Shown: positions 17,017 to 32,097 of the stretch, piece by piece | Numbering within the stretch: the first letter of the stretch is position 1 | Layout: every line of letters starts with the position of its first letter | Origin: Spirochaetia bacterium | GTDB lineage: Bacteria; Spirochaetota; Spirochaetia; UBA9216 | DNA length: 64,000 nucleotides | Direction: 5' to 3' | Assembly: GCA_963675665.1 (NCBI GenBank) | Contig: OY776510.1 | Location: 416,001-480,000, forward strand | The notes under the pieces: model-generated | Told to the model about the DNA's origin: nothing | The model's input: only the letters and a program-made list of their open reading frames with translations | Database searches by the model: none | Made by a program: the position numbers and the translations under genes

Positions 17017-18510
17017 TTAAAGAATGAGCATCAAGACTGCAAAGCTGAGAAAAAGCAGGCCGGTAAGAATTTTGATTATCCCCAGGTTGGTTTGAAATAT
17101 TCCGGTAATCTTTTTGGATGTAATCCCCAGATATACGACAATGAAGACTACAGCCAGAGGAATAATAAATGCAAGATTATACAATGCAAGGTAAAAATAA
17201 CCCGAAGCAGCTTTATCAGTCTGAATAATATAAGTAATAGTCGGAAAGTAGATCTGCCCTGTACAACCCAGTTCAAATATCGATATCAGAAAGCCCATAA
17301 CAATTGAACTTCCGGCAAGAGCCGCTGATTTCGTATAGGACCTTATAGAATCATGCATCCGCCGTTTTACAGAATCCGGAAGCTGTAAAATTATATCTTT
17401 TGTCTTTCCAGAGCGAATTTTCCCGTAATCATAAAAACTCAACCCCGCAAAGACAACAAGAACAGCAAAAAGAACCCACCTTATTATCCGGCTTACCAGC
17501 TCAAACGAATCGGCAATTCTTATAATTTTGAAAAATCCCAGCCCTATCAGATAATAGGTTATAAATACCGTTACCGTAAAAAACAGTCCGATAATCAGTG
17601 TCTCGCGCCGGCTTCTTCCGGCAACACTCAGCGCGCTTAATAAAAATATCAAGGTCGTAAAAGCACAGGGGTTTACTCCGTCCAGCAATCCGGCGGCAAG
17701 AACCGCAGCCAGAGACATGCTTATTCCATCAGATTTATTTCCCTTGCTTTCATTTTCTCCGGACGCGCCTGTATCCCGGCCGGAGTCGCCGGCCAGCAGC
17801 GCGGTATAACCTGCCATGACGGCTTCTTCACCCTGATAAATATCCTCTGTCGTAACAAAAACCGGGATCTCTTTTAACGATGTTCCGCGGTCGGCAAACA
17901 GCTGCTGCAGTTCTTCATAATACTCAGCTTCTGTTATATCCCGCTTGTCAATATTAATTTCGGCATCACGGAGAAACCGGTTGCAGCTCTTGCAGCCCGG
18001 GGTATAGTAATAACGGGGAATCTCTGTTGTCCCTTCCCCGGACATAATACCCGCGGAAGATTCCGGTTCAGCCGGCATTGTCGAATCATCCGCTGCATCT
18101 GCAGATACCGACGAAACATCCACACTGCCTGTAACTACAAAAAAGCCCTTGGGCATTGCATCTGAATTGGTCTGAATTATAAGCAGTTTTTCGAAGTCGC
18201 CGGAATCGTCATGGCTGTCAAAAACAATTGTAAATTCCGCCGATTCTCCGGCGGATATATCAAGGCTTTCAGGATAAGTTGTCATACAGCTGCAGGTACT
18301 GATTAAATCAACTGTAACATTTTCCGTAGTGTTGTTGGTAATTTTAACCGGCTGTTCAACAACATCCCCGTACTCAATCGAGCCTGTATTCCAGTCGGTT
18401 ATGCTGAATTCGAGATTGCCGCCGTCATCCTGGGCTGCAGCCGAAAATAAAACCAGAAAGGAAAAAGCAAGAGTTATAAATAATCTGTTCAGTCTGTTAA
18501 TTTTTTCCAT
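17017..18510 (-). CDS. DUF1573 Ig-like + CxxC glutaredoxin-like + CcdA-type membrane domain fusion
   Basis: TCSCM, YTPGCKSC, DGVNPCAF and ELGCTGQIYFP motifs. Confidence 0.75.
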   Translation of the reverse strand: MEKINRLNRLFITLAFSFLVLFSAAAQDDGGNLEFSITDWNTGSIEYGDVVEQPVKITNNTTENVTVDLISTCSCMTTYPESLDISAGESAEFTIVFDSHDDSGDFEKLLIIQTNSDAMPKGFFVVTGSVDVSSVSADAADDSTMPAEPESSAGIMSGEGTTEIPRYYYTPGCKSCNRFLRDAEINIDKRDITEAEYYEELQQLFADRGTSLKEIPVFVTTEDIYQGEEAVMAGYTALLAGDSGRDTGASGENESKGNKSDGISMSLAAVLAAGLLDGVNPCAFTTLIFLLSALSVAGRSRRETLIIGLFFTVTVFITYYLIGLGFFKIIRIADSFELVSRIIRWVLFAVLVVFAGLSFYDYGKIRSGKTKDIILQLPDSVKRRMHDSIRSYTKSAALAGSSIVMGFLISIFELGCTGQIYFPTITYIIQTDKAASGYFYLALYNLAFIIPLAVVFIVVYLGITSKKITGIFQTNLGIIKILTGLLFLSFAVLMLIL

Positions 18511-19408
18511 TCTTCAGGTTATTGATTAATTCCTTTTTATAATCTTCAAACGCCTGAAGAATAATCGGATCTTCAGGGTCCTTTTCATATGTAAAGTAGC
18601 GCATACTGTTTGAAACAGATTTCAGCTTTTTTAATCTGAACGACAGTTCGAGCCTTCCGACCCTGTTGCCTTCCTCACCGGGAGAAGCAATCACCCGCTG
18701 TCCGTCGATATTCTCATAAAGTATCTGATCATGCGCCGACAGGATCGCGTCCCATCCGGTTTGATCAGCAAATATTTCCTTTGAAGCATCAAGATTCCCA
18801 TGATAAACCAGCAGCTTGTAATGCGCGCCGCCGTCGACCAGAGCCTTGTATGCCTGCACAGCCGAATCGACCGGTGAAAAAACACTGACCCTTGATTTGA
18901 CGTCCTCCGGATAAAAGAAAAACACACCTGGATCTATTACTGCTGCAATTCCGATTTTAATTCCTTTCCTCTCAATGATTAAAGGCTTTTGATTGACCGG
19001 TTTACCGTCTATTTTTACGTTGTCCGCTATAAACGCAATCTCCCCTGATATGGATTTAAAAAAATCGACGCCTGATCCCAGCTCCTGATCGCCGAGAGCC
19101 GCCGCATCATAACCAAGCCCGGAATACAATTCCACAAGCTTGGCGCTTAGAAGCTTGTCTGTGCGGGCATCGTTAAAATCACCGAGATCTATTATCACTG
19201 ACGATTCCGGATCAAGTCCGCGTATATATGCTGCAGTAGTGGACAGCCCGGCTTTTGGCACTCCCTTACACTCACAGCCTATAAGGTTTCCATTGAGTGA
19301 TGCTGTATAGTAAATGGAAACATCCGTATCGGCAAATATGCCTGCTGATGATAAAACGGTTAAAGTCAGAACGGCAAGCAGCAGTCTGAAAGCAACCGGT
19401 TTAGCCAT
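18497..19408 (-). CDS. UshA-like (5'-nucleotidase N-domain) secreted protein with CxC motif
   Basis: YTASLNGNLIGCEC..GL, IDLGD, ALGDQE, YH, SAHD; signal peptide. Confidence 0.72.
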   Translation of the reverse strand: MAKPVAFRLLLAVLTLTVLSSAGIFADTDVSIYYTASLNGNLIGCECKGVPKAGLSTTAAYIRGLDPESSVIIDLGDFNDARTDKLLSAKLVELYSGLGYDAAALGDQELGSGVDFFKSISGEIAFIADNVKIDGKPVNQKPLIIERKGIKIGIAAVIDPGVFFFYPEDVKSRVSVFSPVDSAVQAYKALVDGGAHYKLLVYHGNLDASKEIFADQTGWDAILSAHDQILYENIDGQRVIASPGEEGNRVGRLELSFRLKKLKSVSNSMRYFTYEKDPEDPIILQAFEDYKKELINNLKNGKN

Positions 19409-19910
19409 TAAATGCTCCTGAAAGAATTTGCCTTATGTTATCGATATCTTCTTCATGGTACCCGACTGTTTTAAAGGCTATTTTACCGTCAGGATTAACC
19501 AGAAACATTGTCGGAAGCGCTTCAACGCCGAATGCTCCGGAGGCTTTCTGATATTTATCTATCAGGATCTGCACCGGTGTGGGTCTGTCTGCAAAAAACG
19601 GAACTACCACATCAAGCCCTTCATTGTCGGTGGCCATAAGAAAAACGTCGAAATCCCTGTCTGCAAATTCGTTGTAAAGCTCTTCGACATGAGGAAGTTC
19701 TTCATTACAGTTCTCACACCAGGTTGCATAAAAATCTATCAGCAGCCACCCGGTTCCATAGGTTTTCTTTGAAAAAACATAGTTTTTCCCGATATCCGTA
19801 AGTACAAACGCCGGAGCATCATCTCCTTCTTCTACAGCAAAGACCTGTACCGAAAAAATCATACTCATCAGCAGTACAATCAGAATTATTGCAGCAATTT
19901 TATTTTTCAC
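19401..19910 (-). CDS. TlpA/ResA family thiol-disulfide oxidoreductase
   Basis: APAF.L, DFYATWCENC.EELP, LPT cis-Pro; signal peptide; GTG start after GGAAGGT. Confidence 0.9.
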   Translation of the reverse strand: MKNKIAAIILIVLLMSMIFSVQVFAVEEGDDAPAFVLTDIGKNYVFSKKTYGTGWLLIDFYATWCENCNEELPHVEELYNEFADRDFDVFLMATDNEGLDVVVPFFADRPTPVQILIDKYQKASGAFGVEALPTMFLVNPDGKIAFKTVGYHEEDIDNIRQILSGAFNG

Positions 19911-19965
19911 AGCCCACCTTCCTGAAAATTGATATTATAAAGGATAACACCTTTGGAGTGCGGAA

Positions 19966-20433
19966 TCAATCCGCTTTGCATATTATCAGTTCCCAAACAA
20001 TGGAATCTTCTGTTTCAAGGTGCATATGAAAACCAAACCGTTTATGTAGACGTATTGAAGCCTCATTATTCCTGAAGCTTCGGCTTAAAAGTCTGTATAG
20101 CTTCCTTCTGCGGCAATCCTTAATCAGATCATCCATCATTAACGTTCCCAGGCCCTGTTTCTGTTTTGAAGGCAGAACCGCTATATCATAAATATGCGCT
20201 GTTTCAGTAATACGGGCATCACGCGGCCAAAGGGAATAACGGTAGAAACCTGCTATAACATCTCCGTCAAAAAGGTATTTAACACGGTCTTTATCGGTAT
20301 TGTGACTATCAATCATATCCGCAATCTTTTCAGAATCTGTTTTCTCACCGAATTCCCGCGGCCATTCAGCATTAATTAAATCAATTATTTCCGAGTAGTC
20401 CGGCAATCCTTCAATTTCTTTAAACATCATCAT
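19966..20433 (-). CDS. GNAT acetyltransferase
   Basis: IAVLP.KQKQGLGT motif A, N..SIRLHKRFGF. Confidence 0.85.
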   Translation of the reverse strand: MMMFKEIEGLPDYSEIIDLINAEWPREFGEKTDSEKIADMIDSHNTDKDRVKYLFDGDVIAGFYRYSLWPRDARITETAHIYDIAVLPSKQKQGLGTLMMDDLIKDCRRRKLYRLLSRSFRNNEASIRLHKRFGFHMHLETEDSIVWELIICKAD

Positions 20434-20453: not shown

Positions 20454-21317
20454 TCATATAAGCAGCCTTGTTGAGTCTTCCGGACTGTCAAGCGGTATTC
20501 TGATTACAGATAGCTCATCACCGTCATGCGCTCCGTTAATACATACGGTCCGGCCTATTTTCTGCATCCAGCTTCCGCTCAATCCTGCAGATTCATGCAC
20601 ATGCCCGTGTAAAGTCAGAAGCGGCTGACGCTCCTCAATAAAACGGTAAATTGCAATACTTCCAAGATGCTCATCGACCGGGACATGATCTACAACTGCG
20701 GCCCCTACATCGCCCAGATCCAGATCCGTACTGTAGGGCGGTGCGTGAAACAGAAACACTGCCTTATCAAGCTGTTCATCAGCAGTCAAATCATCAATAT
20801 CATCTTTTATTGTAGTCCACTTCTGTTCATGCTCGCTGGCCGGAAAAGATCGCCGGCCTTCTTCGGGACTGATGCATCCGACATCGATATATCTGGAAAC
20901 ATCATACCGTTCCCAGTCTTTCAGCATAAAAGGCGTCGGCGGTACATAGTTATAACCGTAAAAGGAATAGCTTTCCGCCAGCACTTTACGCTGATGGATA
21001 TATGTCCACAGTCCGTTTGCGCCGCCGGAAACCAGGGCTGATTCAAAATATTTCGGATCATCGTTTCCCATAATAATTAATGTTTCCGGATATTTTTTGC
21101 CGAGACGATTTTTTAAATCAGTAAAGTTTTTCACGAGGAATCCGTTTATAAAATCACTACCTCCGGGAACCGCAGAATCCGTCGCGGGCATAAAAGGCGA
21201 AAGGAGATCTCCTCCGACAAGAAGAATGTCCGGAGGGTTGCCGAGTAAATATTCAAACAGGGAAAGGTACCTTTCTTTTTTTCCGTGAAGATCCGTAACA
21301 AAAACAGCATCAGGCAT
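20454..21317 (-). CDS. Calcineurin-like metallophosphoesterase (Icc-related)
   Basis: TDLHG, GGD, GNDD, HAPP, GHVHE. Confidence 0.88.
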   Translation of the reverse strand: MPDAVFVTDLHGKKERYLSLFEYLLGNPPDILLVGGDLLSPFMPATDSAVPGGSDFINGFLVKNFTDLKNRLGKKYPETLIIMGNDDPKYFESALVSGGANGLWTYIHQRKVLAESYSFYGYNYVPPTPFMLKDWERYDVSRYIDVGCISPEEGRRSFPASEHEQKWTTIKDDIDDLTADEQLDKAVFLFHAPPYSTDLDLGDVGAAVVDHVPVDEHLGSIAIYRFIEERQPLLTLHGHVHESAGLSGSWMQKIGRTVCINGAHDGDELSVIRIPLDSPEDSTRLLI

Positions 21318-24300
21318 TTTCAGATCCTAATTTAAGTTCTCTTGCGGCATCGGTAACTGCATTTATTTTTACCGCAATACTGGTTCGTTTTTCAATATCC
21401 GAATCTGTAAGATAATGAACATCGAGTAATTCTTCAGTTTTATAACCGGTCCGCAGATAATTAATCCTGCCCAAAGCCCGGCTCCAGCCGTCAAGCCACA
21501 GGGCAAGCGCTTCCTTTTTCCCGGCGTCATCACCAATATGAATTATCAAATCAATATCGCTCATCGGTCCGGCGGTTGCATTCTTTGTGCTGCCGAAGAG
21601 ATAAAAGGCCTTCACCCCGAAGAACCCGGCATCCAGCGATTCCGCAATAGTTTCCGCCATTGAATAGCGCCAGCTCCAGTAATCTTCATGTGTTTCGTTG
21701 TTATGGGAATATATATCAATTTGTTTACCGGAAGAAGAGGGATCGGAAAAAATGGCGATCGCCTCATTAATCTCCTCGTTCATAAGAACCTTCAAGACCT
21801 TTCCTTCTGTTTCTTTTCTGATATCGGTTACGAAAATAACACGGGAGAGCTCCGAAAAGTCCGGAAGTATCTCAGTAAGTATATTCTTTGAACGCGTTAA
21901 AAATGCATCTTTCATCAATATTCCGGGATCGTCGGGATACAAAGGAAGATATTTTATTTCGGCCTCAACAAGATCCTGAAAAAAATGAGTTCCGAAAGAG
22001 ACTTCGGGAAGATAATCCCCTTTTTTCCTGGCAATCTCAATCAGCATGGCGGTATTATTAATATCCGAGTAATTAACCCTTACTCCCAGTTTAATATCTC
22101 CGCGGCTTCCCCAACGCCCCGGCCCCATAAGAATAAAACGGCGTTTCGGAAGAATTGAATTCAGCCTGCCGACAGCGGCCCCCACGCGTTCCAGCTGTTC
22201 AAACGACGGTAAATCATTGTAGGCCTCAGGATCTATATAAACAATATAGTCGATATTATCAACAAGCCCGTTTGCAATATGCTTCTTCGCTGTAAAAAGA
22301 ACCTGGTTCTCGTTTATATCCTTGGGAATGGGCTGAGGAAGGCTTTCCCGAACCCCGGCCTGGGGCCTGCACTGGAGAAGAAAAAGCCGGCCGCCGCTGA
22401 AAGCGAATTCTATATCAACAATTGTATTTAAACGTTCTTTCAGTTCATCTATTATGGATTTTATTTTTTCAATAAGACCTGTATTTCGAATCAGCGGATC
22501 AAGAGTAAACACAAGATCATCATTCGCCGTATCAAGCTGAAATTTATTCCTGTTCTTGAAAATATCATCTTCAAATACAGAAAACAGAAGATCCATATCG
22601 GGATATGTAACCGGGTTGTTTCTCAGAAAATCTCTGACATTAACGGTTTCGAATATATTCGTACGCAGATTTATCACATCCATCATTCTGGGTGAATACC
22701 TTACAGCTTCGGACGGCAAAGGATTTACCTTCATCCCCGGATTTCCCGGGCAGATTAATACGGGATAATCATCGCTTAACCTGTCGACAGCCCGGGTTCC
22801 GAGACCGGGAACTATCCTGAGCAGACCGTCTTCCTTTGAAATCCTCGGGGACCAGCGATATTCATTACGGCCGAATCCTACGCCTGCAAAAGAAGGGAAA
22901 AAAAAGTCTCCCGCCTGTTCTCCGACAACCTCCTGAATAATAACAGCCATCTCCTCATGAAATTCAAGAAGACCATGCGCTTTTCGGTATTCAAGCGGAT
23001 CCGGGCCGAAAGTTGAAGCATATATTTCTGCTATAGCATCCAGTACAGCCGTAAGACGCTCCTCTCTGGATCCCTGATTGGCAAGAAAAAGACTTTTATA
23101 TTTACCCGAAAAAGCAGTTCCGTAACGGTCTTCCAGCAGGCTGGAACTTCTTACAATAACGGGTTTGTTTCCGAAGTCTTCCATAGCCATTGACAGTCCG
23201 TTGACAAAATCGATTGGAAAATTCGAGTTCTTGAAAACCTGTATCAGATTCGGATAATCCGCCCTGATTTCTTCTATATCCTTGTATTTCTGTTCAAGAG
23301 ATTCTTCAAGGTTATTATAATAAATAAATTTATGCATATAATCCGAAGATATATACCAGGTTTTCGGAATACTTACATCTATGCCCGCCTTTTTCAGAAA
23401 CTGCCCGGCAATAAACAGACCGGCGCTTTTGCCTCCAAGTTTTCCATGACTGTTATTAGGGTATATTGCGTGCTGCAGTACTGAATAAAAATCATTTACA
23501 TCAAGGTAATCTTTTGCTGATCTTATAAATTCCATCTGTTCAGTAAATACACGCTGTATAAAGAGCGCATTAATATTTGTTCTCGAATAACTGGAAATCT
23601 CAAAATGAGACTGGTTCAAATGATGAAATCTTGAAATGGCCGCGGCAATTCCCGATAACGGAGTATTGAAATTCTCCAGCGCACTGACAAGAAAGCCTGT
23701 TTTATCTTCTTTGATCCATTTATTCAGATATATTTTTATTTCGTCCTCAGACAAATTCTGGGATGCAATCTTGAAAATATGCTGATTAAATTTATCGTAC
23801 AGTTCAAAGTTAATTTTTAGAGACGGGATATTCACATCCTGAAGAACAGTAATATTTTCGCATTGTTTCTGAAGGCCCATACATCCGAGAACGCTCTGAG
23901 CTTCCCGGACGCCCAGCAGACACAGCCGGTTCAGCATACGTCTGGATATTTTCCTGAAAAGAATACTGTCCATTTTTTCCACCAGTTCAAGAATAACCAT
24001 CCAGTCCGGCTTTTTGTTGGCATCGATATCCTGCCTGGCTTTCTCCCACTGTTCAAGCGAAAACTGAAGATCCTGCTGAAAGAGAAAATTTTCAATTCTT
24101 TCGGCTATGGTATTAAGCAATTGCTGTTCTTCAGGAAGAAACGGACTTGACAACCGTGTTGAACCGTCGCTGAAGTGAACTTCTATGATACCGACCGGCT
24201 CGCCGCGAAGTATTAATTCCGCACTTTGGAACCATTTTGATGTCGAGAACCCGTCCGTCGTATAACTTTTATTTCTATAAACGATCCTTACTGAGCAGAA

Positions 24301-24474
24301 CGCCGGAAACTGCCACCCGGAAGGAATAATATCTATAAGCCTGGGGAACACATCCTCTATACTGAGCTGTTCCTTGTTGACAACTTCCTTGACTCTGTAA
24401 AGACATTGGAGCTCTTTTGCTCTTTCATTTAGATTCTGAATCAACGTATTCTCATCGAATGAATTACCGTTCAT
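21310..24474 (-). CDS. PEP/pyruvate-binding (PPDK_N ATP-grasp) protein with N-terminal GAF-like domain, His motif and C-terminal nucleotidyltransferase domain
   Basis: ERAKELQCLY..PSGWQFP; LGGKSAG, VRSSSLLED..FSGKY, GLGT.AV, DIEFA, LQCRP; SFGTHFF; LFGS..SDIDL. Confidence 0.82.
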   Translation of the reverse strand: MNGNSFDENTLIQNLNERAKELQCLYRVKEVVNKEQLSIEDVFPRLIDIIPSGWQFPAFCSVRIVYRNKSYTTDGFSTSKWFQSAELILRGEPVGIIEVHFSDGSTRLSSPFLPEEQQLLNTIAERIENFLFQQDLQFSLEQWEKARQDIDANKKPDWMVILELVEKMDSILFRKISRRMLNRLCLLGVREAQSVLGCMGLQKQCENITVLQDVNIPSLKINFELYDKFNQHIFKIASQNLSEDEIKIYLNKWIKEDKTGFLVSALENFNTPLSGIAAAISRFHHLNQSHFEISSYSRTNINALFIQRVFTEQMEFIRSAKDYLDVNDFYSVLQHAIYPNNSHGKLGGKSAGLFIAGQFLKKAGIDVSIPKTWYISSDYMHKFIYYNNLEESLEQKYKDIEEIRADYPNLIQVFKNSNFPIDFVNGLSMAMEDFGNKPVIVRSSSLLEDRYGTAFSGKYKSLFLANQGSREERLTAVLDAIAEIYASTFGPDPLEYRKAHGLLEFHEEMAVIIQEVVGEQAGDFFFPSFAGVGFGRNEYRWSPRISKEDGLLRIVPGLGTRAVDRLSDDYPVLICPGNPGMKVNPLPSEAVRYSPRMMDVINLRTNIFETVNVRDFLRNNPVTYPDMDLLFSVFEDDIFKNRNKFQLDTANDDLVFTLDPLIRNTGLIEKIKSIIDELKERLNTIVDIEFAFSGGRLFLLQCRPQAGVRESLPQPIPKDINENQVLFTAKKHIANGLVDNIDYIVYIDPEAYNDLPSFEQLERVGAAVGRLNSILPKRRFILMGPGRWGSRGDIKLGVRVNYSDINNTAMLIEIARKKGDYLPEVSFGTHFFQDLVEAEIKYLPLYPDDPGILMKDAFLTRSKNILTEILPDFSELSRVIFVTDIRKETEGKVLKVLMNEEINEAIAIFSDPSSSGKQIDIYSHNNETHEDYWSWRYSMAETIAESLDAGFFGVKAFYLFGSTKNATAGPMSDIDLIIHIGDDAGKKEALALWLDGWSRALGRINYLRTGYKTEELLDVHYLTDSDIEKRTSIAVKINAVTDAARELKLGSENA

Positions 24475-26165
24475 AGTATAATAATTCCTTTCCGGGTATT
24501 TCCGTCTGCTATTATTTTAATACTTTTTTCAAATTTTATGTGCTTAAAAAACTTGCCTTCAAAAACAGTCTGTTGAGACTCCAGATAATTATAGTCTATA
24601 AAGCTGTCATTGTCCCGGCTGCAGGAATCTATCGAGAAATACACTGTGTCAGTATTCAGAATATTATGAAAAAAATGCGAACCCTGACTGAGTTCCGGAT
24701 TCATCTCCGGCAGCGTGGATTCGATGATTACGGAAGCCCCGGAAATCTGGGACCAGCTGACCGGAATTCCTAATGCCGGGTCCGAAGATCCCCAGCGGCC
24801 GAACCCGGACAAAATATATCTCTTGCCCTCAACAACCAGTTTCCGGTTGATTCTCTCAATTTCCAGCGGCATCTCGGCTGTTTTCAATGCGGAAAATCTT
24901 TGCGGATTTATATAGACAAAATCTTCAACATTTTCAATATATACGTTCCCCAGGGCATTATCGGTATAGGCAACCAGTTTACTCCTGTCGAAAGAAGATA
25001 TATCAGGGACAATACAGGTATTAAGTCTTTTCATGGGCCTTATTTGAAGAAAGGCGAAATCAGCCGTAGGTTTTTGAGGAAAATCAATATTGACGGCAAA
25101 TTCGATTTCTATTTCGGAACCTGTTTTTTCCCTGCATTTATCAAGAATATCCGTAACAAGTCTGTTTAAATTTATTATTTCGCCTTTAAGAATAGGTGAA
25201 AAATCAATTAGCTTGAAACCGGAGTCAAGAAAACCCATTTCCAGCCTGTCGGAGGACCTTGAATATGTCGAGCAGAGGCTGCTAATAATTTTACTTTCTT
25301 CAAGGCTTTTTACAGGCTGCAGCGACAAAAACTCTTTTTCATCAAGAGGCGACTCCTTATCCGGCGGTTTTAAATCAATTGCCCAGAAATCAGTCTGCCC
25401 GGCATCAAGAAGGTTTTTCAACGATGCGGGAGGCGGTGAAGCAGGTTTTTCAGGACTGTATATCCATTTTCGTCCGCCGTCAACAATTGTCTTTCCAAGT
25501 CCGGCCGCAAGTTCCACAATACCGCTTTCCGGCTTGCATCCGCTGAAAGGATAATAATTATATGAACGGCCGACGCCTGAAAATGCCGGATAAAAATATC
25601 TTCCGTATGATTTACCGTGAACCCTCTGGATAATGACCGCCATCCTTTCCATATCAATATCAATACCGGCTGATTTAAAACTGTCCCGGGAGGCTTCGAA
25701 CCAGACTGATGAATACACAAACTTTACAGCATTAATAAGCTGCAGAAACCTGACATCAGGGTCAGGATGATTATTGGGAATCATTTTTGTTGCAAACAAT
25801 CCGGCAAAAGGCCTGTTTAAAGAATCTTCGGTCAGACTGGAGGAACGTATTGCAAGAGGGCCTTTCCTGCCGTTTGAAATCTTTCTTACCTCTCCGATCA
25901 AAAACGGCGGAAAAGAAGCTTTGTTAAATAAAAGTGAAATCTGTTCATCTGTCTTGTTGTTTATGAGTTCAGATCTTAATTTATTTTCATTAATAAAAAG
26001 AGTAAATACATCAGAAAGAATGACTGTCATTTCGGGAACCCCGACAGAGATTCCGTGCCTGCCAACATCAGAAAAATATTCGTCTATCAGCGATTGTATC
26101 CTGATAAGGCCGGAACCTTTTCCTCCCGGAGCTCCGCTTCCAATAAATGATATTTTATTGTTCAT
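24471..26165 (-). CDS. PEP/pyruvate-binding (PPDK_N) domain protein with C-terminal His motif
   Basis: GGKGSGL, IRSSSLTED..FAGLF, GLGKTIVDG, EIEFA, LQIRP, GRWGS, SQGSHFF; ATG 26165 preferred to TTG 26204. Confidence 0.82.
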   Translation of the reverse strand: MNNKISFIGSGAPGGKGSGLIRIQSLIDEYFSDVGRHGISVGVPEMTVILSDVFTLFINENKLRSELINNKTDEQISLLFNKASFPPFLIGEVRKISNGRKGPLAIRSSSLTEDSLNRPFAGLFATKMIPNNHPDPDVRFLQLINAVKFVYSSVWFEASRDSFKSAGIDIDMERMAVIIQRVHGKSYGRYFYPAFSGVGRSYNYYPFSGCKPESGIVELAAGLGKTIVDGGRKWIYSPEKPASPPPASLKNLLDAGQTDFWAIDLKPPDKESPLDEKEFLSLQPVKSLEESKIISSLCSTYSRSSDRLEMGFLDSGFKLIDFSPILKGEIINLNRLVTDILDKCREKTGSEIEIEFAVNIDFPQKPTADFAFLQIRPMKRLNTCIVPDISSFDRSKLVAYTDNALGNVYIENVEDFVYINPQRFSALKTAEMPLEIERINRKLVVEGKRYILSGFGRWGSSDPALGIPVSWSQISGASVIIESTLPEMNPELSQGSHFFHNILNTDTVYFSIDSCSRDNDSFIDYNYLESQQTVFEGKFFKHIKFEKSIKIIADGNTRKGIIIL

Positions 26166-26177
26166 AAAGATAAAAAC

Positions 26178-26202
26178 GCCGGATACCGGCACGGTATCCG
26201 GC
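26178..26202 (-). terminator. Intrinsic terminator after gdhA
   Basis: Perfect 11-bp stem GCCGGATACCG / CGGTATCCGGC with 3-nt loop, followed by GTTTTTATCTTT on the minus strand. Confidence 0.75.
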
Positions 26203-26209
26203 AATATTA

Positions 26210-27496
26210 TTAAGTCCAGCCACGCTGTTTACAGGCGTCGGCCACACGATTAACAGAAATTATGTATGCAGCATCTCTCATGTAAAGATTATTCTTTCCG
26301 GCAAGTTCCGAAACAGACATAAACGCTGAAGTCATCTTTAGATCAAGTTTACTTATCACCTCATCTTTTTCCCAGTAATAATTCATATTATTCTGTACCT
26401 GCTCAAAATAGCTGCATGTTACTCCCCCGGCATTTGCGAGAAAATCCGGAATTATAAATATTCCGCGCTCTTTTAAAATTTCATCTGCTTCAGGGGTCGT
26501 CGGACCGTTGGCCGCTTCGGCAATTATCTTTACACCTTTGCCTATTTTTCCAACAGTCTCTTTGGTTATCTGATTTTCAAGTGCCGCAGGAATAATAATA
26601 TCAACATCCTGCTCAATCCAGACATCCCCCGGAAGCACCTCATATCCCAGTGAAATTGCCTTTTCACGGTCTATACCTCCGAACCGGTCGGCTATTCCCC
26701 GAAGCTCTTCAAGGTTTATCCCGTCTTTCTTCCTGAATGAAAATGATTTCGACTCCTTTTGATCCCAGCAGGATACGCAAACAACAGTTCCGCCAAGCTG
26801 TTCATACAACTGTATTGCATACTGGGCAACATTGCCAAACCCCTGAATACTGGCGATTGTTTTTTCAGGCGACATATTAAGTTCCTTCAAGGCCTCTCGC
26901 AGGGTAAATATCACCCCGAAACCGGTTGCTTCAGTTCTTCCAAGGGACCCGCCGAGACCGACCGGTTTACCGGTAATTACACCGGGATATTTTGCTCCGG
27001 TTATGGCTTCGTACTCATCCAGCATCCAGATCATATGTTGGCCGTTAGTCATTACATCCGGCGCCGGAACATCGCGAACCGGCCCAAGCGCACCCGCAAG
27101 CTGTCTAATCCAGCCCCTGCAGATTCTTTCCTGTTCTCCTGCGCTAAGATGATGCGGATCACATATTACTCCGCCTTTGCTTCCGCCCAAAGGAATATCC
27201 ACTACGCTGCATTTCCAGGTCATCCACATGGATAAAGCTCTGACGGTGTCAATTGTTTCAAGCGGATGAAATCTGATTCCGCCTTTCCCCGGACCAAGCG
27301 CATCATTATGCTGACACCTGAATCCGTTGAAAACCTTAACACTCCCGTCATCCATTCTCACGGGGATATTTACATGATATTCCCGCATGGGAACCCTTAA
27401 AAGATCTCTTGTGCCCTGATCAAGCATAAGATATTCGGCAATATTGTCGAACTGCTGTTGTGCCATTTTAAACGCATTATAAGACTGGTCTTTCAT
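26210..27496 (-). CDS. gdhA: Glu/Leu/Phe/Val dehydrogenase, probably glutamate dehydrogenase
   Basis: GPGKGGIRF, MTWKC, GGSKGG, VPAPD, GRTEATG, QGFGNV, EAANGP, ANAGGV..SYFE; ATG 27496 after GAGGTG. Confidence 0.92.
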   Translation of the reverse strand: MKDQSYNAFKMAQQQFDNIAEYLMLDQGTRDLLRVPMREYHVNIPVRMDDGSVKVFNGFRCQHNDALGPGKGGIRFHPLETIDTVRALSMWMTWKCSVVDIPLGGSKGGVICDPHHLSAGEQERICRGWIRQLAGALGPVRDVPAPDVMTNGQHMIWMLDEYEAITGAKYPGVITGKPVGLGGSLGRTEATGFGVIFTLREALKELNMSPEKTIASIQGFGNVAQYAIQLYEQLGGTVVCVSCWDQKESKSFSFRKKDGINLEELRGIADRFGGIDREKAISLGYEVLPGDVWIEQDVDIIIPAALENQITKETVGKIGKGVKIIAEAANGPTTPEADEILKERGIFIIPDFLANAGGVTCSYFEQVQNNMNYYWEKDEVISKLDLKMTSAFMSVSELAGKNNLYMRDAAYIISVNRVADACKQRGWT

Positions 27497-27706
27497 TCTC
27501 TGCACCTCTGTATCAATGAAAATATAAATAGAGTTTGCGCCAACATTACACAGCTGTCAATACGATTTCGGCTTTACCAGAGCCTTAACAGAACGCTATC
27601 ATCATTAAATTTAGAGCAAAACACGATATCCGTACGCAGAGAATATATAGATTATTAAATTTATTTGATAATGATTCAGAAGAAAGGTATTATATACTAT
27701 TTTCTA

Positions 27707-28405
27707 TTAATCTGCCGAACCGCAGATATACTCCGCATACTTATTTGGAACAAGAAGTGCTTTGCCGCCGTCAATTGTAACCCTGATCCCCTCGGTTTCA
27801 ACTGCGTCAACCATCATTCTGCGCCCCGGTCTGAGTTCATTTTCATAACAGAACTGGAGCAGACCTTCCTCGGCTTCCCCTTCTTCAGTTATCCTGACAA
27901 GCCGGACATTGCTGCTTTCAACTGCCTGACTGAGACGTGGCGCCGCAAGGATTTCATTTTCCAGGGGTGAACCGGGAAAAGGATTGCCGTGAGGACAGGT
28001 TTCCGGTCTGCCCAGTTTATCATGGAGAAAATATGCGAAATCATCAGATATTGCAGCCTGCAGCCTGGAAGCTTCCTCATCCGATTTAACCCAGTGATAA
28101 TCAAGCATTTTTATAAGAAGATGTTCAATCAGATAGTGTCTTTTCAGAAGCCTTGAGGCTGTTATTCTGCCTGAAGCCGTCAGATTTATCGAGCCGTATA
28201 GATCCTGCTCAATAAGGCTGTATCTTTTCAAACGATTCATGGCCTGTGTTACGGCGGGTTTCGATACTCCCAGACGAGCCGCTATTACCGAGTTTTTTAC
28301 AATACCGTAATCCCGGTTTGTGATAAATATTTCAATCAAGTACTCCGCCGCCGCCGGGAATTTCTTTGTTAATTCTTCCAAATCATAAACCTGATCTTTT
28401 CCCAT
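27707..28405 (-). CDS. DtxR/MntR family metal-dependent repressor with FeoA/SH3-like C-terminal domain
   Basis: EYL, VSKPAVTQAMNRL HTH, RHYLIE, CPHGNP; start MGKDQ at 28405. Confidence 0.88.
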   Translation of the reverse strand: MGKDQVYDLEELTKKFPAAAEYLIEIFITNRDYGIVKNSVIAARLGVSKPAVTQAMNRLKRYSLIEQDLYGSINLTASGRITASRLLKRHYLIEHLLIKMLDYHWVKSDEEASRLQAAISDDFAYFLHDKLGRPETCPHGNPFPGSPLENEILAAPRLSQAVESSNVRLVRITEEGEAEEGLLQFCYENELRPGRRMMVDAVETEGIRVTIDGGKALLVPNKYAEYICGSAD

Positions 28406-28450
28406 AAGCTCAGAATACACTATTTTGCCCCTTATAAAAAGAAATTCTAA

Positions 28451-29725
28451 CATAGCTGTCCAAAATAAGGACTATTAATAGCCTGAATCCCTGGTTATAA
28501 TGAATTGAGCGGGCAAGCTTAAATCATTACAACGGAAGGAAAACAGGCAATGAGTTATAAGAATAGCATTTTAAATCAGATACTTCAAATCATTCCGAGA
28601 CATGAATTTGAAAGATCTGTCAGAAAGTATAAAGGAGATTTTGCTTCAAAAGGATTCTCCTGTTGGGAACAATTTGTTTCAATGCTGTTTGCCCAATTTA
28701 CAGGACAGACCGGACTTAGAGGCATAGAAACAGCATTGGATTCGATTAAAAACATGCTTTATCATTTGGGGGTAAAAAAGCTTAAACGCTCAACACTTTC
28801 CTATGCAAATAACAACAGACCCTCAGAAATTTATGAAAATGTATTCAATAACCTGCTGACAAAGATCCTTAAAATGAAAAGGTCTCATAAGCATAGATTT
28901 AAAAATCCGCTGTACAGTGTTGATGCGACAACCATCGATTTATGCCTGTCAGTATTTCCATGGGCGAAGTTTAGAAAGAATAAAGGCGGAATCAAACTTA
29001 ATGTAAAACTTGATCACAGCGGATATATTCCGGACTTTGTATCTGTTACAACAGCTCAAACCCATGAGCTTAATTCACTCAAGAAAATGAAATTCAATAA
29101 AGGTGATGTAGTTGCATTCGATCGGGCCTATACAGATTTCAAATTATTTGCAAGTTATTGTATTGCAGGCATTTATTTTATTACTCGTATGAAAAAGAAT
29201 GCAGATTATAAAGTTGTTCAAAGAAATAATGTTTCAAAATATGAAAATATTTCATCAGATCAAATAATTGAAATGCGAGGATACTACACCAGCAAGAAGT
29301 GACCACTCCAATTACGGCGAATTAGAATAAAAGATCCGGAAACAGGAAAATATATTGTAATTCTTACAAATCAGCTTGATTGGGCACCTACAACAGTTGC
29401 TGCTGTCTATAAGGACAGATGGCAGATAGAAATATTCTTCAAAACAATCAAACAGAACCTGAAAATAAAGAAGTTTTTTGGAACGACGAAAAATGCAGTA
29501 ATGACTCAGATCTGGATAGCATTGATAACTCATCTGATGCTGCAATATCTGAAGATGTTATCTTCCGGTGGATGGACTCATTATTCGCTTATGAAATTGC
29601 TTCCATCAATCCTGACGACCAGAAAAGATCTCTGGAATATTCTGAATAAACTACCGCCGCCCGGCAGAAATGAGCCAGGCTTAAAACTTCAAATGGAGCT
29701 GTTATGATTGTTTTGGACAGCTATG
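28451..29725 (+). mobile_element. IS4-family insertion sequence (1275 bp)
   Basis: 15-bp perfect terminal IR CATAGCTGTCCAAAA; 9-bp target duplication AAATTCTAA at 28442-28450 and 29726-29734. Confidence 0.95.
28550..29707 (+). pseudogene. IS4-family DDE transposase interrupted by in-frame TGA at 29300-29302
   Basis: VDATTI, FDRAY; same frame resumes PLQLRRI..YKDRWQIEIFFKTIKQNL (YREK motif) to the stop at 29707. Confidence 0.9.
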
Positions 29726-29787: not shown

Positions 29788-32097
29788 TTATTGAAGGGAA
29801 AGACTTTTTGATTTTCTGCCCATTGCCCTGAAACTAAAATATATGGCAAGTGCAAGGATTACGGGAACTACTATCCAGACTACCTGACCTCCCTGAAAAA
29901 TCTGATAGAACAGGGTAGCAACAATCCAGGCGAGAAGGGTCAGGTAAGTAACGAGAAGTGTTCCGTAGGCCCTGCCTGTTTCCTGAACGGCTACACCCAG
30001 GGCGGCAACGCATGGAAAGTAGATCAGAATAAAGAGAAGATAAGCATAGGCGCTTACGGGCGTAAAGTTGTTCCTCAGCCCGGTAAAGACGCTGTCTCCG
30101 GTTTCAAGCTCTTCGCCTGTCACCTCTTCATCTCCGTTAATAATTCCGGCGCCGAAGGGATCGGACAGACCGCCGAAGATGCCGGCAAGGTTTTCTCCGA
30201 GGGTTATAAAAGCTTCGCCGAGAACCGGGCCGAGCCCCCATCCGGAATCATCATCGCTTTCGGCAGCATCTTCCGTAACAGCTTCCTGCGCATACAGAGA
30301 ATTCAACGTTCCGACCACAGCTTCTTTGGCAAAAAGGCCGGTAAACAGACTTACGGTGGCAGGCCAATTCTCCTTTTCAATTCCCATGGGGGTAAAAATC
30401 GGAGTAATAGCTTTTCCTACAACAGATAAAACCGATTCTTCCGAATCTTCATTTCCGAAGGAACCGTCCGTTCCAAGCGAGTTGAAAAACGCCAGAACCA
30501 GCACGACAAGAATGATCACCTTTCCCGCCCTGAAAAGGTAAACTTTAAGTCTCCGCCAGGCGCTTTTTGTTATCTGCCCCAAACGCGGTCGGTGATATTC
30601 GGGCAACTCCATGACAAAAGGAGAGTATTCACCCTTCAGGATACTGCTTTTAAGTAATAGTCCCGTAAGAATTGCCAGCACAATCCCCGCTGCGTAAATC
30701 GAGAATACAACGGCTCCGGAACGTGTTCCAAAAAAAGCGGCTGTGAACAGCGCATAAACAGGCAGACGGGCACCGCAGGACATAAACGGGGACATAAAGA
30801 TGGTCATGAATCTGTCCCGCCTCGATTCCAGAGTCCTGGTCGCCATAATAGCCGGAACAGTACAGCCGAAACCGACAAGCATGGGAACAAACGCCTTGCC
30901 CGGTAGACCGATTGCCCTCATTGCACGGTCCATAACAAAAGCAGCTCTGGACATGTACCCGGAATCTTCAAGAATAGCCAGCATAAAAAACATTACAAAA
31001 ATAATGGGAACAAAAGTCGAAACGGTCTGAATACCTCCGCCAATACCGCCTGCGATTATCGAAGTAAGCCATTCCGGACTTCCGATATTCGACAGCAGAG
31101 TTCCGAGACCGTCGACAAAGATTCCGCCGAAAACAATATCAAACCAGTCTATAAATGCGCCGCCGATGCTCATTGTTACCCAGAAAACAAGGTACATAAC
31201 ACCTATAAAAATTGGAATGCCCCAGATCCTGTGCATAAGAAGTTTATCCGCTCCGCTGGAAGTTTCCGCTTTTTCTTCAGGATGCTTAACACAAGAATCA
31301 CAAACCCCGGTAATCCATGAATAACGATCTTCGGCAACACTCATATCAACGCTTGTTTTCATTGAGGCTTCCAGCTTTTCAATTTGGGCATCTACTTCAA
31401 TACGTTTGATACTCCCCTCTGCAAGCGAAGTTATATATTCATCTTCCTCGAGAAGGTTAACAGCAAGAAATTTTGAATTGATTTTTAATTCTTTGGCAAG
31501 CGCCCCCAGCCTTAAGGCAAGAGTCCCTACCGCCGCTTCGATTTCCGGAGAGTATTCAACTGGATAAACCGAAACCGACGGCAATTTTTCAAGCACACTG
31601 ATTAATTCATTCCTGAAATTATCCAGGCTATCCTTTCTTACTGCAGAAAGCGGAATTACCGGGCAGCCGAGCTTCAGGGAAAGTTTTTCAACATCTATGC
31701 CGAGGCCTTCCTTTTCTGCCGCATCCATCATATTAAGTGCTATAACAACCGGAAGTCCGGCTTCCAGAATCGTTCCGGTCAGATAAAGATTACGTTCAAG
31801 ATTTGCCGCATCAATAATACTGACAACACAATCAACATTACCGCTGATGAGAAAATCACGTGCGACGCGCTCATCTTCAGACTCTGCAGAAAGACTGTAT
31901 ATACCGGGAAGATCAACTACTCTGTAATCCGACTTTTTCGTTTTTAACAGGCCCTGTTTGCGCTCAACAGTTACGCCGGGCCAGTTGCCGACTTTTGCGG
32001 TGGAACCGGTAAGTCCGTTAAAAATTGTAGTCTTTCCGCAATTCGGATTACCCGCGAGCGCTACCGTTATTGTTTTTGTTTCTGTTGCAGTATTCAT
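29788..32097 (-). CDS. feoB: Ferrous iron transporter B
   Basis: GNPNCGKT, NWPGVTVE, DLPGIYSL, NMMD, LEDSGYMSR, GFGCTVPA, MSCGARLP, YFPC. Confidence 0.97.
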   Translation of the reverse strand: MNTATETKTITVALAGNPNCGKTTIFNGLTGSTAKVGNWPGVTVERKQGLLKTKKSDYRVVDLPGIYSLSAESEDERVARDFLISGNVDCVVSIIDAANLERNLYLTGTILEAGLPVVIALNMMDAAEKEGLGIDVEKLSLKLGCPVIPLSAVRKDSLDNFRNELISVLEKLPSVSVYPVEYSPEIEAAVGTLALRLGALAKELKINSKFLAVNLLEEDEYITSLAEGSIKRIEVDAQIEKLEASMKTSVDMSVAEDRYSWITGVCDSCVKHPEEKAETSSGADKLLMHRIWGIPIFIGVMYLVFWVTMSIGGAFIDWFDIVFGGIFVDGLGTLLSNIGSPEWLTSIIAGGIGGGIQTVSTFVPIIFVMFFMLAILEDSGYMSRAAFVMDRAMRAIGLPGKAFVPMLVGFGCTVPAIMATRTLESRRDRFMTIFMSPFMSCGARLPVYALFTAAFFGTRSGAVVFSIYAAGIVLAILTGLLLKSSILKGEYSPFVMELPEYHRPRLGQITKSAWRRLKVYLFRAGKVIILVVLVLAFFNSLGTDGSFGNEDSEESVLSVVGKAITPIFTPMGIEKENWPATVSLFTGLFAKEAVVGTLNSLYAQEAVTEDAAESDDDSGWGLGPVLGEAFITLGENLAGIFGGLSDPFGAGIINGDEEVTGEELETGDSVFTGLRNNFTPVSAYAYLLFILIYFPCVAALGVAVQETGRAYGTLLVTYLTLLAWIVATLFYQIFQGGQVVWIVVPVILALAIYFSFRAMGRKSKSLSLQ

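Follow-up and report, generated by a model that had tools for sequence, protein, structure and literature searches.

We analyzed a 64,000-nucleotide stretch of the genome of a Spirochaetia bacterium (hereafter the window, numbered from its first letter), in which four consecutive open reading frames (ORFs) on the minus strand, between positions 20454 and 27505, encode a glutamate dehydrogenase (GDH; gdhA), a small and a large protein with the PPDK_N ATP-grasp domain of pyruvate phosphate dikinase (PPDK), and a calcineurin-like metallophosphoesterase. Taken together, the analyses suggest that this cluster probably forms an undescribed control system for GDH, a central enzyme of nitrogen and carbon metabolism. 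All features of the cluster given below lie on the minus strand. The first gene, gdhA (26210 to 27496), encodes a hexameric-type GDH; its ORF opens at a GTG at 27505 (26210 to 27505), and the likely start is the ATG at 27496, which gives a protein of 428 residues that matches its relatives in length. For the small gene (ORF 24471 to 26204), the likely start is the ATG at 26165 rather than the TTG at 26204, because a fused homologue described below aligns from that methionine and the 13 extra codons are a translated terminator hairpin. The small gene thus spans 24471 to 26165 and encodes 564 residues. The large gene (21310 to 24474) encodes a protein of 1,054 residues and the metallophosphoesterase gene (20454 to 21317) one of 287 residues. 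As read from the sequence, the small and large genes overlap by the 4 bp ATGA and the large and phosphoesterase genes by the 8 bp ATGCCTGA.

An initial annotation of the same stretch had described gdhA followed at this place by two PPDK_N genes, the larger with a fused nucleotidyltransferase (NTase), and a phosphoesterase gene, with overlaps of 4 and 8 bp among the last three genes, and had called the whole an operon. The ORFs and their Pfam matches bear out the gene order, and the overlaps are as described. The term operon has to be qualified at the first junction. There, between the gdhA stop codon and the ATG of the small gene, lies an intrinsic-terminator-like hairpin with a U-tract (26168 to 26203; 12-bp stem and 3-nt loop), which has a predicted free energy of −22.4 kcal/mol (z of −5.3) and was equaled in stability by 0 of 200 shuffled sequences. 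Cotranscription of gdhA with the small gene would therefore need read-through. A comparable hairpin with a T-tract is found 3′ of gdhA in 17 of 60 related loci with a gap of 20 to 700 nt. This arrangement suggests that GDH may be produced in surplus over the downstream enzymes, which would be kept low and depend on read-through.

The small protein matches PPDK_N (PF01326) over residues 27 to 396 (E of 8.3e-27; 94.7 bits versus a cutoff of 27), and this match, together with an alignment to the rifampin phosphotransferase chain 5hv6_A, places its ATP-grasp nucleotide-binding domain at 25017 to 26126. The protein contains neither a sensor domain nor a barrel, and it ends with a C-terminal domain that we call domain X (24474 to 24992), in which the histidine of a GSHFF motif is encoded at 24675 to 24677. 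All 37 of 37 sequences share this motif without variation. The two PPDK_N proteins are paralogous, with 25% identity over 531 residues (E of 9e-37) in an alignment that spans the ATP-grasp domain and the C-terminal domain ending in GRWGS...G[ST]HFF. In neither protein did Pfam yield a match at E ≤ 0.01 to PEP-utilizers_C, the pyruvate-binding barrel, or to PEP-utilizers, and single-sequence searches of the PDB with both proteins returned nothing at E ≤ 0.01. The NCBIfam equivalogs for phosphoenolpyruvate (PEP) synthase, PPDK, rifampin phosphotransferase and PigC all scored far below their cutoffs. Hence, two claims of the initial annotation are confirmed, namely that the PPDK_N proteins are paralogues with a G[S/T]HFF motif (GSHFF and GTHFF, read directly) and that both lack a pyruvate-binding TIM barrel.

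To gain insight into domain X, we used an AlphaFold2 model of the small protein built from 37 sequences, which reached a mean predicted local distance difference test (pLDDT) score of 85.8 and a predicted template modeling (pTM) score of 0.88. Residue numbers in the model count from the TTG (577 residues), so that His510 of the model is His497 when counted from the ATG. The best Foldseek matches were rifampin phosphotransferase (5.6e-12), PPDK, HpeI and PEP synthase. In VIA-align comparisons, the chain 5hv6_A, which contains only the ATP domain of rifampin phosphotransferase, aligned to model residues 17 to 392 with a Z of 24.0 (275 residues aligned). Chains of this ATP-grasp-only type stop near model residue 392, whereas three longer chains extend past the ATP-grasp domain: PEP synthase 2ols (chain residues 9 to 465 on model residues 17 to 577; Z of 26.2, root mean square deviation [rmsd] of 4.4, 362 aligned), PPDK 1dik (8 to 505 on 17 to 577; Z of 18.5, rmsd of 4.9, 348 aligned) and rifampin phosphotransferase 5hv3 (to chain residue 866, on 2 to 531; Z of 27.1, rmsd of 3.6, 352 aligned). 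The structure 5hv1 was also among the best matches (Z of 26.4). We take the extra chain ranges of 2ols, 1dik and 5hv3 to be their central swivel phosphohistidine domains. In the model, the G[ST]H of the small protein begins a helix (residues 509 to 517), and the strands and helices of domain X follow one another in an order that, with G[ST]H at a helix start, fits the canonical GG-x-TSH-helix arrangement seen in 26 extracted canonical domains. Domain X therefore appears swivel-phosphohistidine-like in its predicted fold, and its histidine is the putative counterpart of the phosphohistidine.

Profile methods gave a different picture of the same domain. Domain X of the large protein had no Pfam match at E ≤ 10, and a genome-wide search for PF00391 found six matches, none of them within the cluster genes. 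Comparison of domain X with the 26 canonical swivel domains by hhalign gave probabilities of 0.2% and 1.1%, the sole match being a 6-column DG-x-x-G segment (E of 0.047), and a search of the ESM Atlas with domain X returned fragments of the same family only. The initial annotation's proposal of a swivel-histidine carrier marked by G[S/T]HFF is favored by the predicted-structure alignments, which run through the central phosphohistidine domains, while sequence profiles are blind to the relationship.

The large protein combines five parts: a GAF sensor domain (residues 10 to 145; 24040 to 24447), an all-helical region (residues 157 to 336, assigned from the secondary structure of the model; 23467 to 24006), an ATP-grasp domain (22309 to 23442), a domain X (21760 to 22287) and a minimal Pol-beta-type NTase (21313 to 21672). 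Its PPDK_N match covers residues 345 to 722 (E of 4.9e-53; 181 bits versus a cutoff of 27), and the family profile of the protein matches the ATP-grasp domain of rifampin phosphotransferase (5hv6) with an E of 4.7e-09 over profile positions 370 to 528. Domain X carries the motif SFGTHFFQD, invariant in 51 of 51 sequences, whose His830 is encoded at 21985 to 21987. The NTase sits at the position that the pyruvate-binding barrel holds in true dikinases. It matches NTP_transf_2 (PF01909) over residues 953 to 1028, with 28.2 and 32 bits in two Pfam scans versus a cutoff of 21, and the catalytic motif GSTKNATAGPMSDIDLIIH, of the form GS...DxD with a third Asp, can be read directly in the protein; of its residues, G961, S962, D973 and D1018 do not vary among the 51 sequences, and at least 90% of them keep D975. 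The C-terminal pol-beta-type NTase (GS..DID) of the initial annotation is therefore present, as is the GAF-like N terminus, which was recognized by predicted fold, although the Pfam GAF match stays below threshold (E of 0.023; 15.6 bits versus 22.4). Specifically, in a model of the N-terminal 337 residues (pLDDT of 80.4, pTM of 0.51, with blocks 11 to 100 at pLDDT 86 to 96), GAF domains made up most of the best 50 fold matches, including the four best: 3cit_B (Z of 12.8, rmsd of 2.3, 123 aligned), 9bgv_A (12.4), 4g3k_A (12.1) and 8w26_A (11.7). The invariant residues of the domain are E17, R18, E21, L22, C24, F112 and E116, the first of which fall in an invariant ERAKEL-C-LY pattern. Because GAF matches filled the fold search, it barely probed the helical residues 157 to 336.

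The product of the fourth gene matches Metallophos (PF00149) over residues 5 to 242 with an E of 7.9e-10 (39.9 bits versus a cutoff of 21.5), as expected from its earlier description as a calcineurin-like phosphoesterase. NCBIfam gave no match, and a PDB sequence search gave only a chance match (E of 0.64). No signal peptide is evident in the protein.

To determine how widely the cluster is conserved, we scanned one genome per species and found at least 590 relatives of the large protein among 600 matched stretches, of which the best 80 were examined; loci with only part of the large gene, five in number, were left out before GDH and small genes were counted. At the protein level, the large protein has at least 7,996 relatives at E ≤ 0.001 (of 7,999 scored candidates), full-length and with ∼50% identity. 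The 80 related loci carry at least 14 phylum-level names, and the groups represented include Ignavibacteria, Melioribacter, Planctomycetota, Acidobacteriota (including Aminicenantes), Cloacimonadota, Calditrichia, Zixibacteria, Krumholzibacteriia, Eisenbacteria, Bacteroidota, Bacillota, Chloroflexota, Bradymonadales, Chitinispirillaceae, Leptospirales and Spirochaetes. In tblastn searches, a GDH 65 to 76% identical to that of the window lies upstream of the small or large gene, on the same strand, at 66 of the 68 evaluable loci. A true small paralogue (37 to 43% identity) was found at 52 of 67 evaluable loci and a relative of the phosphoesterase (37 to 55% identity) at 52 of the 80, in most cases adjoining the large gene and in two lying 1.7 to 2.3 kb away. 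All-against-all clustering of the neighboring ORFs in these 80 loci brought out no further conserved gene. The survey of the gdhA, PPDK_N pair and phosphoesterase neighborhood proposed in the initial annotation thus found the cluster conserved, and the lack of conservation that it named as counterevidence did not occur.

Some relatives carry the small and large proteins fused into single polypeptides of 1,617 to 1,655 residues, as at loci L017 and L040. One such fusion, P0007, is 63% identical to the small protein over a length of 563 residues, beyond which it corresponds to the large protein. One further locus, L009, carries a partial large gene and a phosphoesterase gene followed by a 659-residue GDH-like ORF (33% identity) and a 991-residue paralogue, and it may combine two subfamilies at a single place.

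The phosphoesterase gene was present at 45 of the 52 loci with a small gene versus 2 of the 15 without (Fisher P of 2.5e-7, a value inflated by relatedness). When presence and absence were mapped onto a FastTree phylogeny of 76 large proteins, state changes numbered 8 for the small gene and 10 for the phosphoesterase gene. The tree offered 6 independent pairs with a difference in the small gene, and the phosphoesterase gene differed in the same way in 3 to 4 of them, in the opposite way in 0 and not at all in 2 to 3 (sign test P of 0.125).

We next turned to the GDH itself. The window GDH contains both ELFV domains (PF00208, E of 2.8e-69; PF02812, E of 7.4e-53), its closest solved chain is 1euz (E of 7.7e-123), and it falls under the NCBIfam equivalog cutoffs (for example, 469.7 bits versus 750 for GdhA_Arch); apart from the features given here, it resembles an ordinary hexameric GDH. 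Among 301 genomes of the phylum, 7 besides that of the window encode a GDH 68 to 72% identical to it, with the system immediately downstream in 5 of the 7. By contrast, 22 other GDH loci among the matches listed, with at most 55% identity to the window GDH, had the system in their 1.5-kb flanks in 0 cases. An alignment of 66 linked GDHs with the 22 unlinked ones revealed 28 private invariant positions in the linked clade, among them H118, H157, T87, T392, C129 and C364. The linked clade is further set apart by two insertions that directly follow a strand of the coenzyme-binding domain, one of them an S-C-W-D element with an invariant Trp. In the window this clade-specific insertion is SCWDQKESKSFS (26738 to 26773), and the alignment column of its W247 holds W in 66 of 66 linked GDHs and a gap in 22 of 22 unlinked ones. 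This conservation makes the insertion a candidate docking or regulatory element. None of the 28 clade-specific positions could be singled out from the alignment as a universal acceptor.

The pairing with GDH recurs outside the window. Its genome contains two GDH genes and four PPDK_N proteins. A third family member in the genome, P0123 (988 residues), consists of a receiver domain, an ATP-grasp domain and then GPGRWG...QGTHFFHN, and shares 29% identity with the large protein (E of 2e-45). The P0123 gene lies 115 nt upstream of the second GDH gene, which encodes a 448-residue protein of another class (L089:4881-9309, corresponding to G000:C1:3307880-3312308 in the same genome outside the window, with two M20 peptidase genes on the far side). 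The P0123 subfamily has at least 7,956 relatives. In 80 metagenome loci of this receiver-domain subfamily, taken with 5-kb flanks and many of them short, a GDH of the 448-residue type lies within 5 kb in 35, mostly with 60 to 76% identity (46% at one locus). At L093, L096 and L100, two tandem receiver-type paralogues of ∼990 residues precede the GDH gene, an arrangement that echoes the small/large pair of the window. Other ORFs near the receiver-type genes (L090 to L169), as judged by eye, resemble electron-transfer subunits of the NuoE/NuoF/GltD type at 14 to 16 of the 80 loci and subunits of 2-oxoacid:ferredoxin oxidoreductase at 8 to 9.

Within the phylum of the window, full-length orthologues of the large protein are present in only ∼6 of the 301 genomes, and a third subfamily of ∼870 residues, 30 to 38% identical over the ATP-grasp domain and domain X, is present in ∼40. 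Its N terminus of ∼300 residues has no assigned domain in the Spirochaetota loci retrieved (L170 to L187). At 15 of the 18 loci fetched, a GDH of the 448-residue type lies within ∼7 kb, mostly directly downstream. At L170 and L177, a different metallophosphoesterase, of 235 residues, adjoins the third-subfamily gene. By an estimate that is rough rather than computed, the chance that a GDH gene falls in a given 10-kb stretch of a multimegabase genome with one or two such genes is well under 1%. Recurrence of the pairing in three subfamilies and with two classes of GDH speaks against a gene order that arose once by chance and was then inherited. Thus, the tie to GDH made in the initial annotation is strongly supported by gene-neighborhood conservation, both at the 66 of 68 loci of the window type and in two paralogous subfamilies that accompany another GDH class.

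Several characterized systems resemble parts of the cluster. The nearest in kind is VadK (Rv1127c) of Mycobacterium tuberculosis, a regulatory histidine (di)kinase derived from PPDK, which is described as a barrel-less PPDK that autophosphorylates on His422 in an ATP- and Mg-dependent manner and interacts with methylcitrate-cycle enzymes (PMC13400623). Like the cluster proteins, VadK as described there joins an ATP-grasp domain to a His-carrier domain with no pyruvate-binding barrel, and it is proposed to control metabolic enzymes rather than to make PEP. By the same account it keeps a PPDK-like phosphotransfer histidine domain, unlike domain X with its lack of Pfam matches at E ≤ 10. Compared by description, it also differs from the cluster in having no GAF or receiver sensor, NTase, paired paralogue or phosphoesterase and in being tied to the methylcitrate cycle instead of GDH. 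Rifampin phosphotransferase, PEP synthase and PPDK (5hv3, 5hv1, 2ols, 1dik) are the best fold matches of the small-protein model, with alignments that begin in the ATP-grasp domain and reach the swivel domain at 13 to 19% identity, but have a third, substrate domain (a barrel or a rifampin-binding domain) that the cluster proteins lack.

For the sensor, a parallel is Enzyme I-Ntr (PtsP), in which glutamine on the GAF domain blocks histidine autophosphorylation and so ties the relay to nitrogen status (PMC4848567). As proposed for the large protein, an N-terminal GAF domain there precedes a swivel-histidine phosphotransfer enzyme, and the PtsP GAF domain 3trc_A was among the fold matches of the large-protein N terminus (Z of 10.5, rmsd of 2.6, 115 aligned). 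Enzyme I-Ntr, however, takes its phosphate from PEP by way of a barrel and passes it to NPr, whereas the donor site of the cluster proteins is an ATP-grasp domain and no HPr-like partner is encoded near the cluster. GlnE and GlnD are Pol-beta-fold NTases, fused to sensor modules, that reversibly transfer AMP or UMP to glutamine synthetase and PII. They are not known to have an ATP-grasp domain or histidine carrier or to target GDH, and the likeness to the cluster considered here is that of fold class. A precedent for the target is found in mammals, where SelO is reported to AMPylate and inactivate Glud1 at a site in the antenna (PMC12375108). The Glud1 case demonstrates that a GDH can be switched off by AMP transfer, as the proposed system may do. 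SelO differs from the cluster NTase in being a pseudokinase-fold enzyme. To our knowledge, bacterial hexameric GDHs of the window's type lack an antenna. By analogy, VadK, Enzyme I-Ntr and SelO/Glud1 lend support in kind to the proposed steps, and the cluster can be classed with two known categories, sensor-controlled enzyme modification and dikinase-derived regulators.

Given what the analyses establish, namely the domain architecture, conserved motifs of catalytic type, similarities in fold, the small–large fusion and the repeated genomic pairing with GDH, we consider the chances about evenly balanced that the cluster is a signal-controlled enzyme system dedicated to the adjacent GDH, acting by covalent modification or by an ATP-dependent activity switch. 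The sensor domains in front of the catalytic cores, GAF here and receiver in the paralogue, support such a regulatory logic. From these features we infer histidine phosphorylation, an acceptor and roles for the NTase and the phosphoesterase, as follows. The GAF domain of the large protein would sense a metabolite, and its ligand might gate loading of the histidine much as glutamine does in Enzyme I-Ntr. The ATP-grasp domain of the large protein would load a phosphoryl or pyrophosphoryl group from ATP onto His830 in the GTHFF motif of the diverged swivel domain, and His510 of the small protein (His497 from the ATG) would be loaded likewise, by analogy with PPDK, PEP synthase, rifampin phosphotransferase and VadK. 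The histidine carrier would then cooperate with the fused minimal NTase that stands where dikinases have their substrate barrel, while the small paralogue may serve as a second ATP-grasp/His-carrier unit working with the large one. As an outcome, GDH would be phosphorylated, nucleotidylated or both, or its activity would be switched by another ATP-dependent route, and the metallophosphoesterase would reverse or edit the modification.

A number of findings weigh against this scheme. Gene adjacency fits a metabolic link equally well, and contact between the proteins and GDH, like modification of GDH, is a prediction. A strong terminator sets gdhA apart from the remaining cluster genes. The phosphoesterase gene lies on the opposite strand at 43 of the 52 loci that have it and is missing from 7 of the 52 with a small gene, and the co-occurrence of these two genes is a consistent trend that is not established once relatedness is allowed for. 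Two of the 7 phylum genomes with a linked-type GDH (69 to 70% identity; L219 and L224) lack the system within 1.5 kb of it, and the large protein was not found there at E ≤ 1e-50. In the GDH insertion, a position that is mostly Tyr was considered as a universal acceptor and rejected, since it is Phe in the window. Finally, sequence methods do not recognize domain X as a PEP-utilizers domain, and the proposed equivalence of its histidine draws on alignment ranges and secondary structure rather than on residue-level superposition.

The gene neighborhood also accommodates a second explanation, a minor but serious contender in our estimate, in which the dikinase-like pair and the NTase are small-molecule enzymes. 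They would make a phosphorylated or nucleotidylated metabolite, a signal nucleotide or a cofactor variant connected with the reaction of GDH, and the phosphoesterase would degrade the product. Any effect on GDH would be allosteric or come through its coenzyme site, and there might be none. The closest solved fold relatives (rifampin phosphotransferase, PEP synthase, PPDK and HpeI) do act on small molecules, the weak best matches in NCBIfam include PigC/RedH and PEP synthase models, the insertions of the linked GDHs lie in the coenzyme-binding domain, and the redox-type genes counted above (2-oxoacid:ferredoxin oxidoreductase-like and NuoE/NuoF/GltD-like) lie near the receiver-type paralogues. 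Yet the cluster proteins contain no substrate-binding domain besides the NTase, with the small protein ending at domain X; fusion of a GAF or receiver domain to the catalytic core is more typical of regulators; and no conserved biosynthetic partner genes lie nearby. We regard it as unlikely that the system instead regulates a target other than GDH, such as another enzyme of amino acid catabolism or a general energy or nitrogen signal, and shares with gdhA only the conditions under which both are needed. The terminator after gdhA and the frequent opposite orientation of the phosphoesterase gene mean that the genes need not share a transcript, only 35 of the 80 receiver-domain loci have a GDH within 5 kb, and VadK interacts with enzymes that are not reported as its neighbors (PMC13400623). 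Set against this are the adjacency at 66 of 68 loci over many phyla with no other conserved neighbor, the repetition of the pairing by three subfamilies and two GDH classes, and the fact that the linked GDHs form a clade of their own with private insertions.

Two further readings are close to excluded. A toxin–antitoxin-like or antiphage module built on the minimal NTase and the phosphoesterase, with no relation to metabolism, is very improbable. The matches that would point to it are weak (PADLOC PDC-S09 for the NTase, 5.9e-05, and PDC-S10 for the phosphoesterase, 4.5e-10; NCBIfam MntA, 20.1 bits versus a cutoff of 60) and are confined to generic catalytic motifs. The cluster contains neither a HEPN protein nor another such partner, PADLOC gave 0 matches for the small protein and matched the large one only at the NTase motif, and the synteny is with a housekeeping enzyme across phyla. 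As the PADLOC matches cover generic motifs only, the defense-system reading was rejected. The least probable of all is an ordinary split PEP synthase or PPDK, as the PPDK_N domains and source database names such as "pyruvate, phosphate dikinase" would have it: neither protein has a PEP-utilizers_C barrel, equivalog scores are far below cutoffs (for example, 53.3 bits versus 739.75 for TIGR01418), and the genome has a separate 924-residue frame with both PPDK_N and PEP-utilizers matches.

Returning to control of GDH by the cluster, a broader version can be put forward as a tentative and rather doubtful extension. In this version, a superfamily of sensor-tagged ATP-grasp/swivel-His enzymes, with GAF, receiver and third-type N termini, would exert dedicated covalent control over bacterial GDHs, with a separate GDH clade paired to each subfamily; in enzymes of the GAF type, the carrier would hand over to the NTase, and a phosphoryl and nucleotidyl modification at the coenzyme-domain insertion would be erased by the metallophosphoesterase. 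If true, this would rank as a fourth great case in which reversible modification controls an enzyme of central metabolism. The other three are GlnE with glutamine synthetase, AceK with isocitrate dehydrogenase, and the PEP-synthase regulatory protein.

Carbon and nitrogen metabolism meet at GDH, and we know of no description of dedicated covalent or enzyme-borne GDH control in bacteria. A literature search for GDH with the domains of the cluster found no paper that describes the cluster, within a search that subscription journals largely lay beyond, and so agrees with the statement in the initial annotation that no pathway of this kind has been characterized. Reversible inactivation of GDH was reportedly observed in Bacteroides fragilis in the 1980s; our search did not find these reports. 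The family is large, spread across many phyla of mostly uncultured anaerobes and soil bacteria, and tied to GDH threefold. Control of GDH by the cluster, if true, would be a new signaling use of the dikinase histidine-swivel mechanism, for which there is so far one published regulatory example (VadK, 2026), and would offer a testable handle on GDH switching in amino acid-fermenting and soil bacteria. Were a small molecule made instead, it would be an undiscovered metabolite or GDH effector.

The genes that flank the cluster in the window were considered as further members and rejected, as the downstream GNAT, redoxin, UshA-like and DsbD-like genes and the upstream DtxR-like gene recur in 0 of the 80 related loci. 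The downstream run (17017 to 20433, minus strand) encodes a GNAT acetyltransferase, a redoxin, a 303-residue ORF whose sole match is a weak one to an NCBIfam UshA-like (seleno)protein model, and a DUF1573/DsbD-type membrane protein. On the other side, between the DtxR-like regulator gene (27707 to 28453, minus strand) and feoB (29788 to 32097, minus strand), a 250-residue DUF4372/DDE_Tnp_1 transposase ORF (28550 to 29302, plus strand) lies in a stretch of low GC content (0.345).

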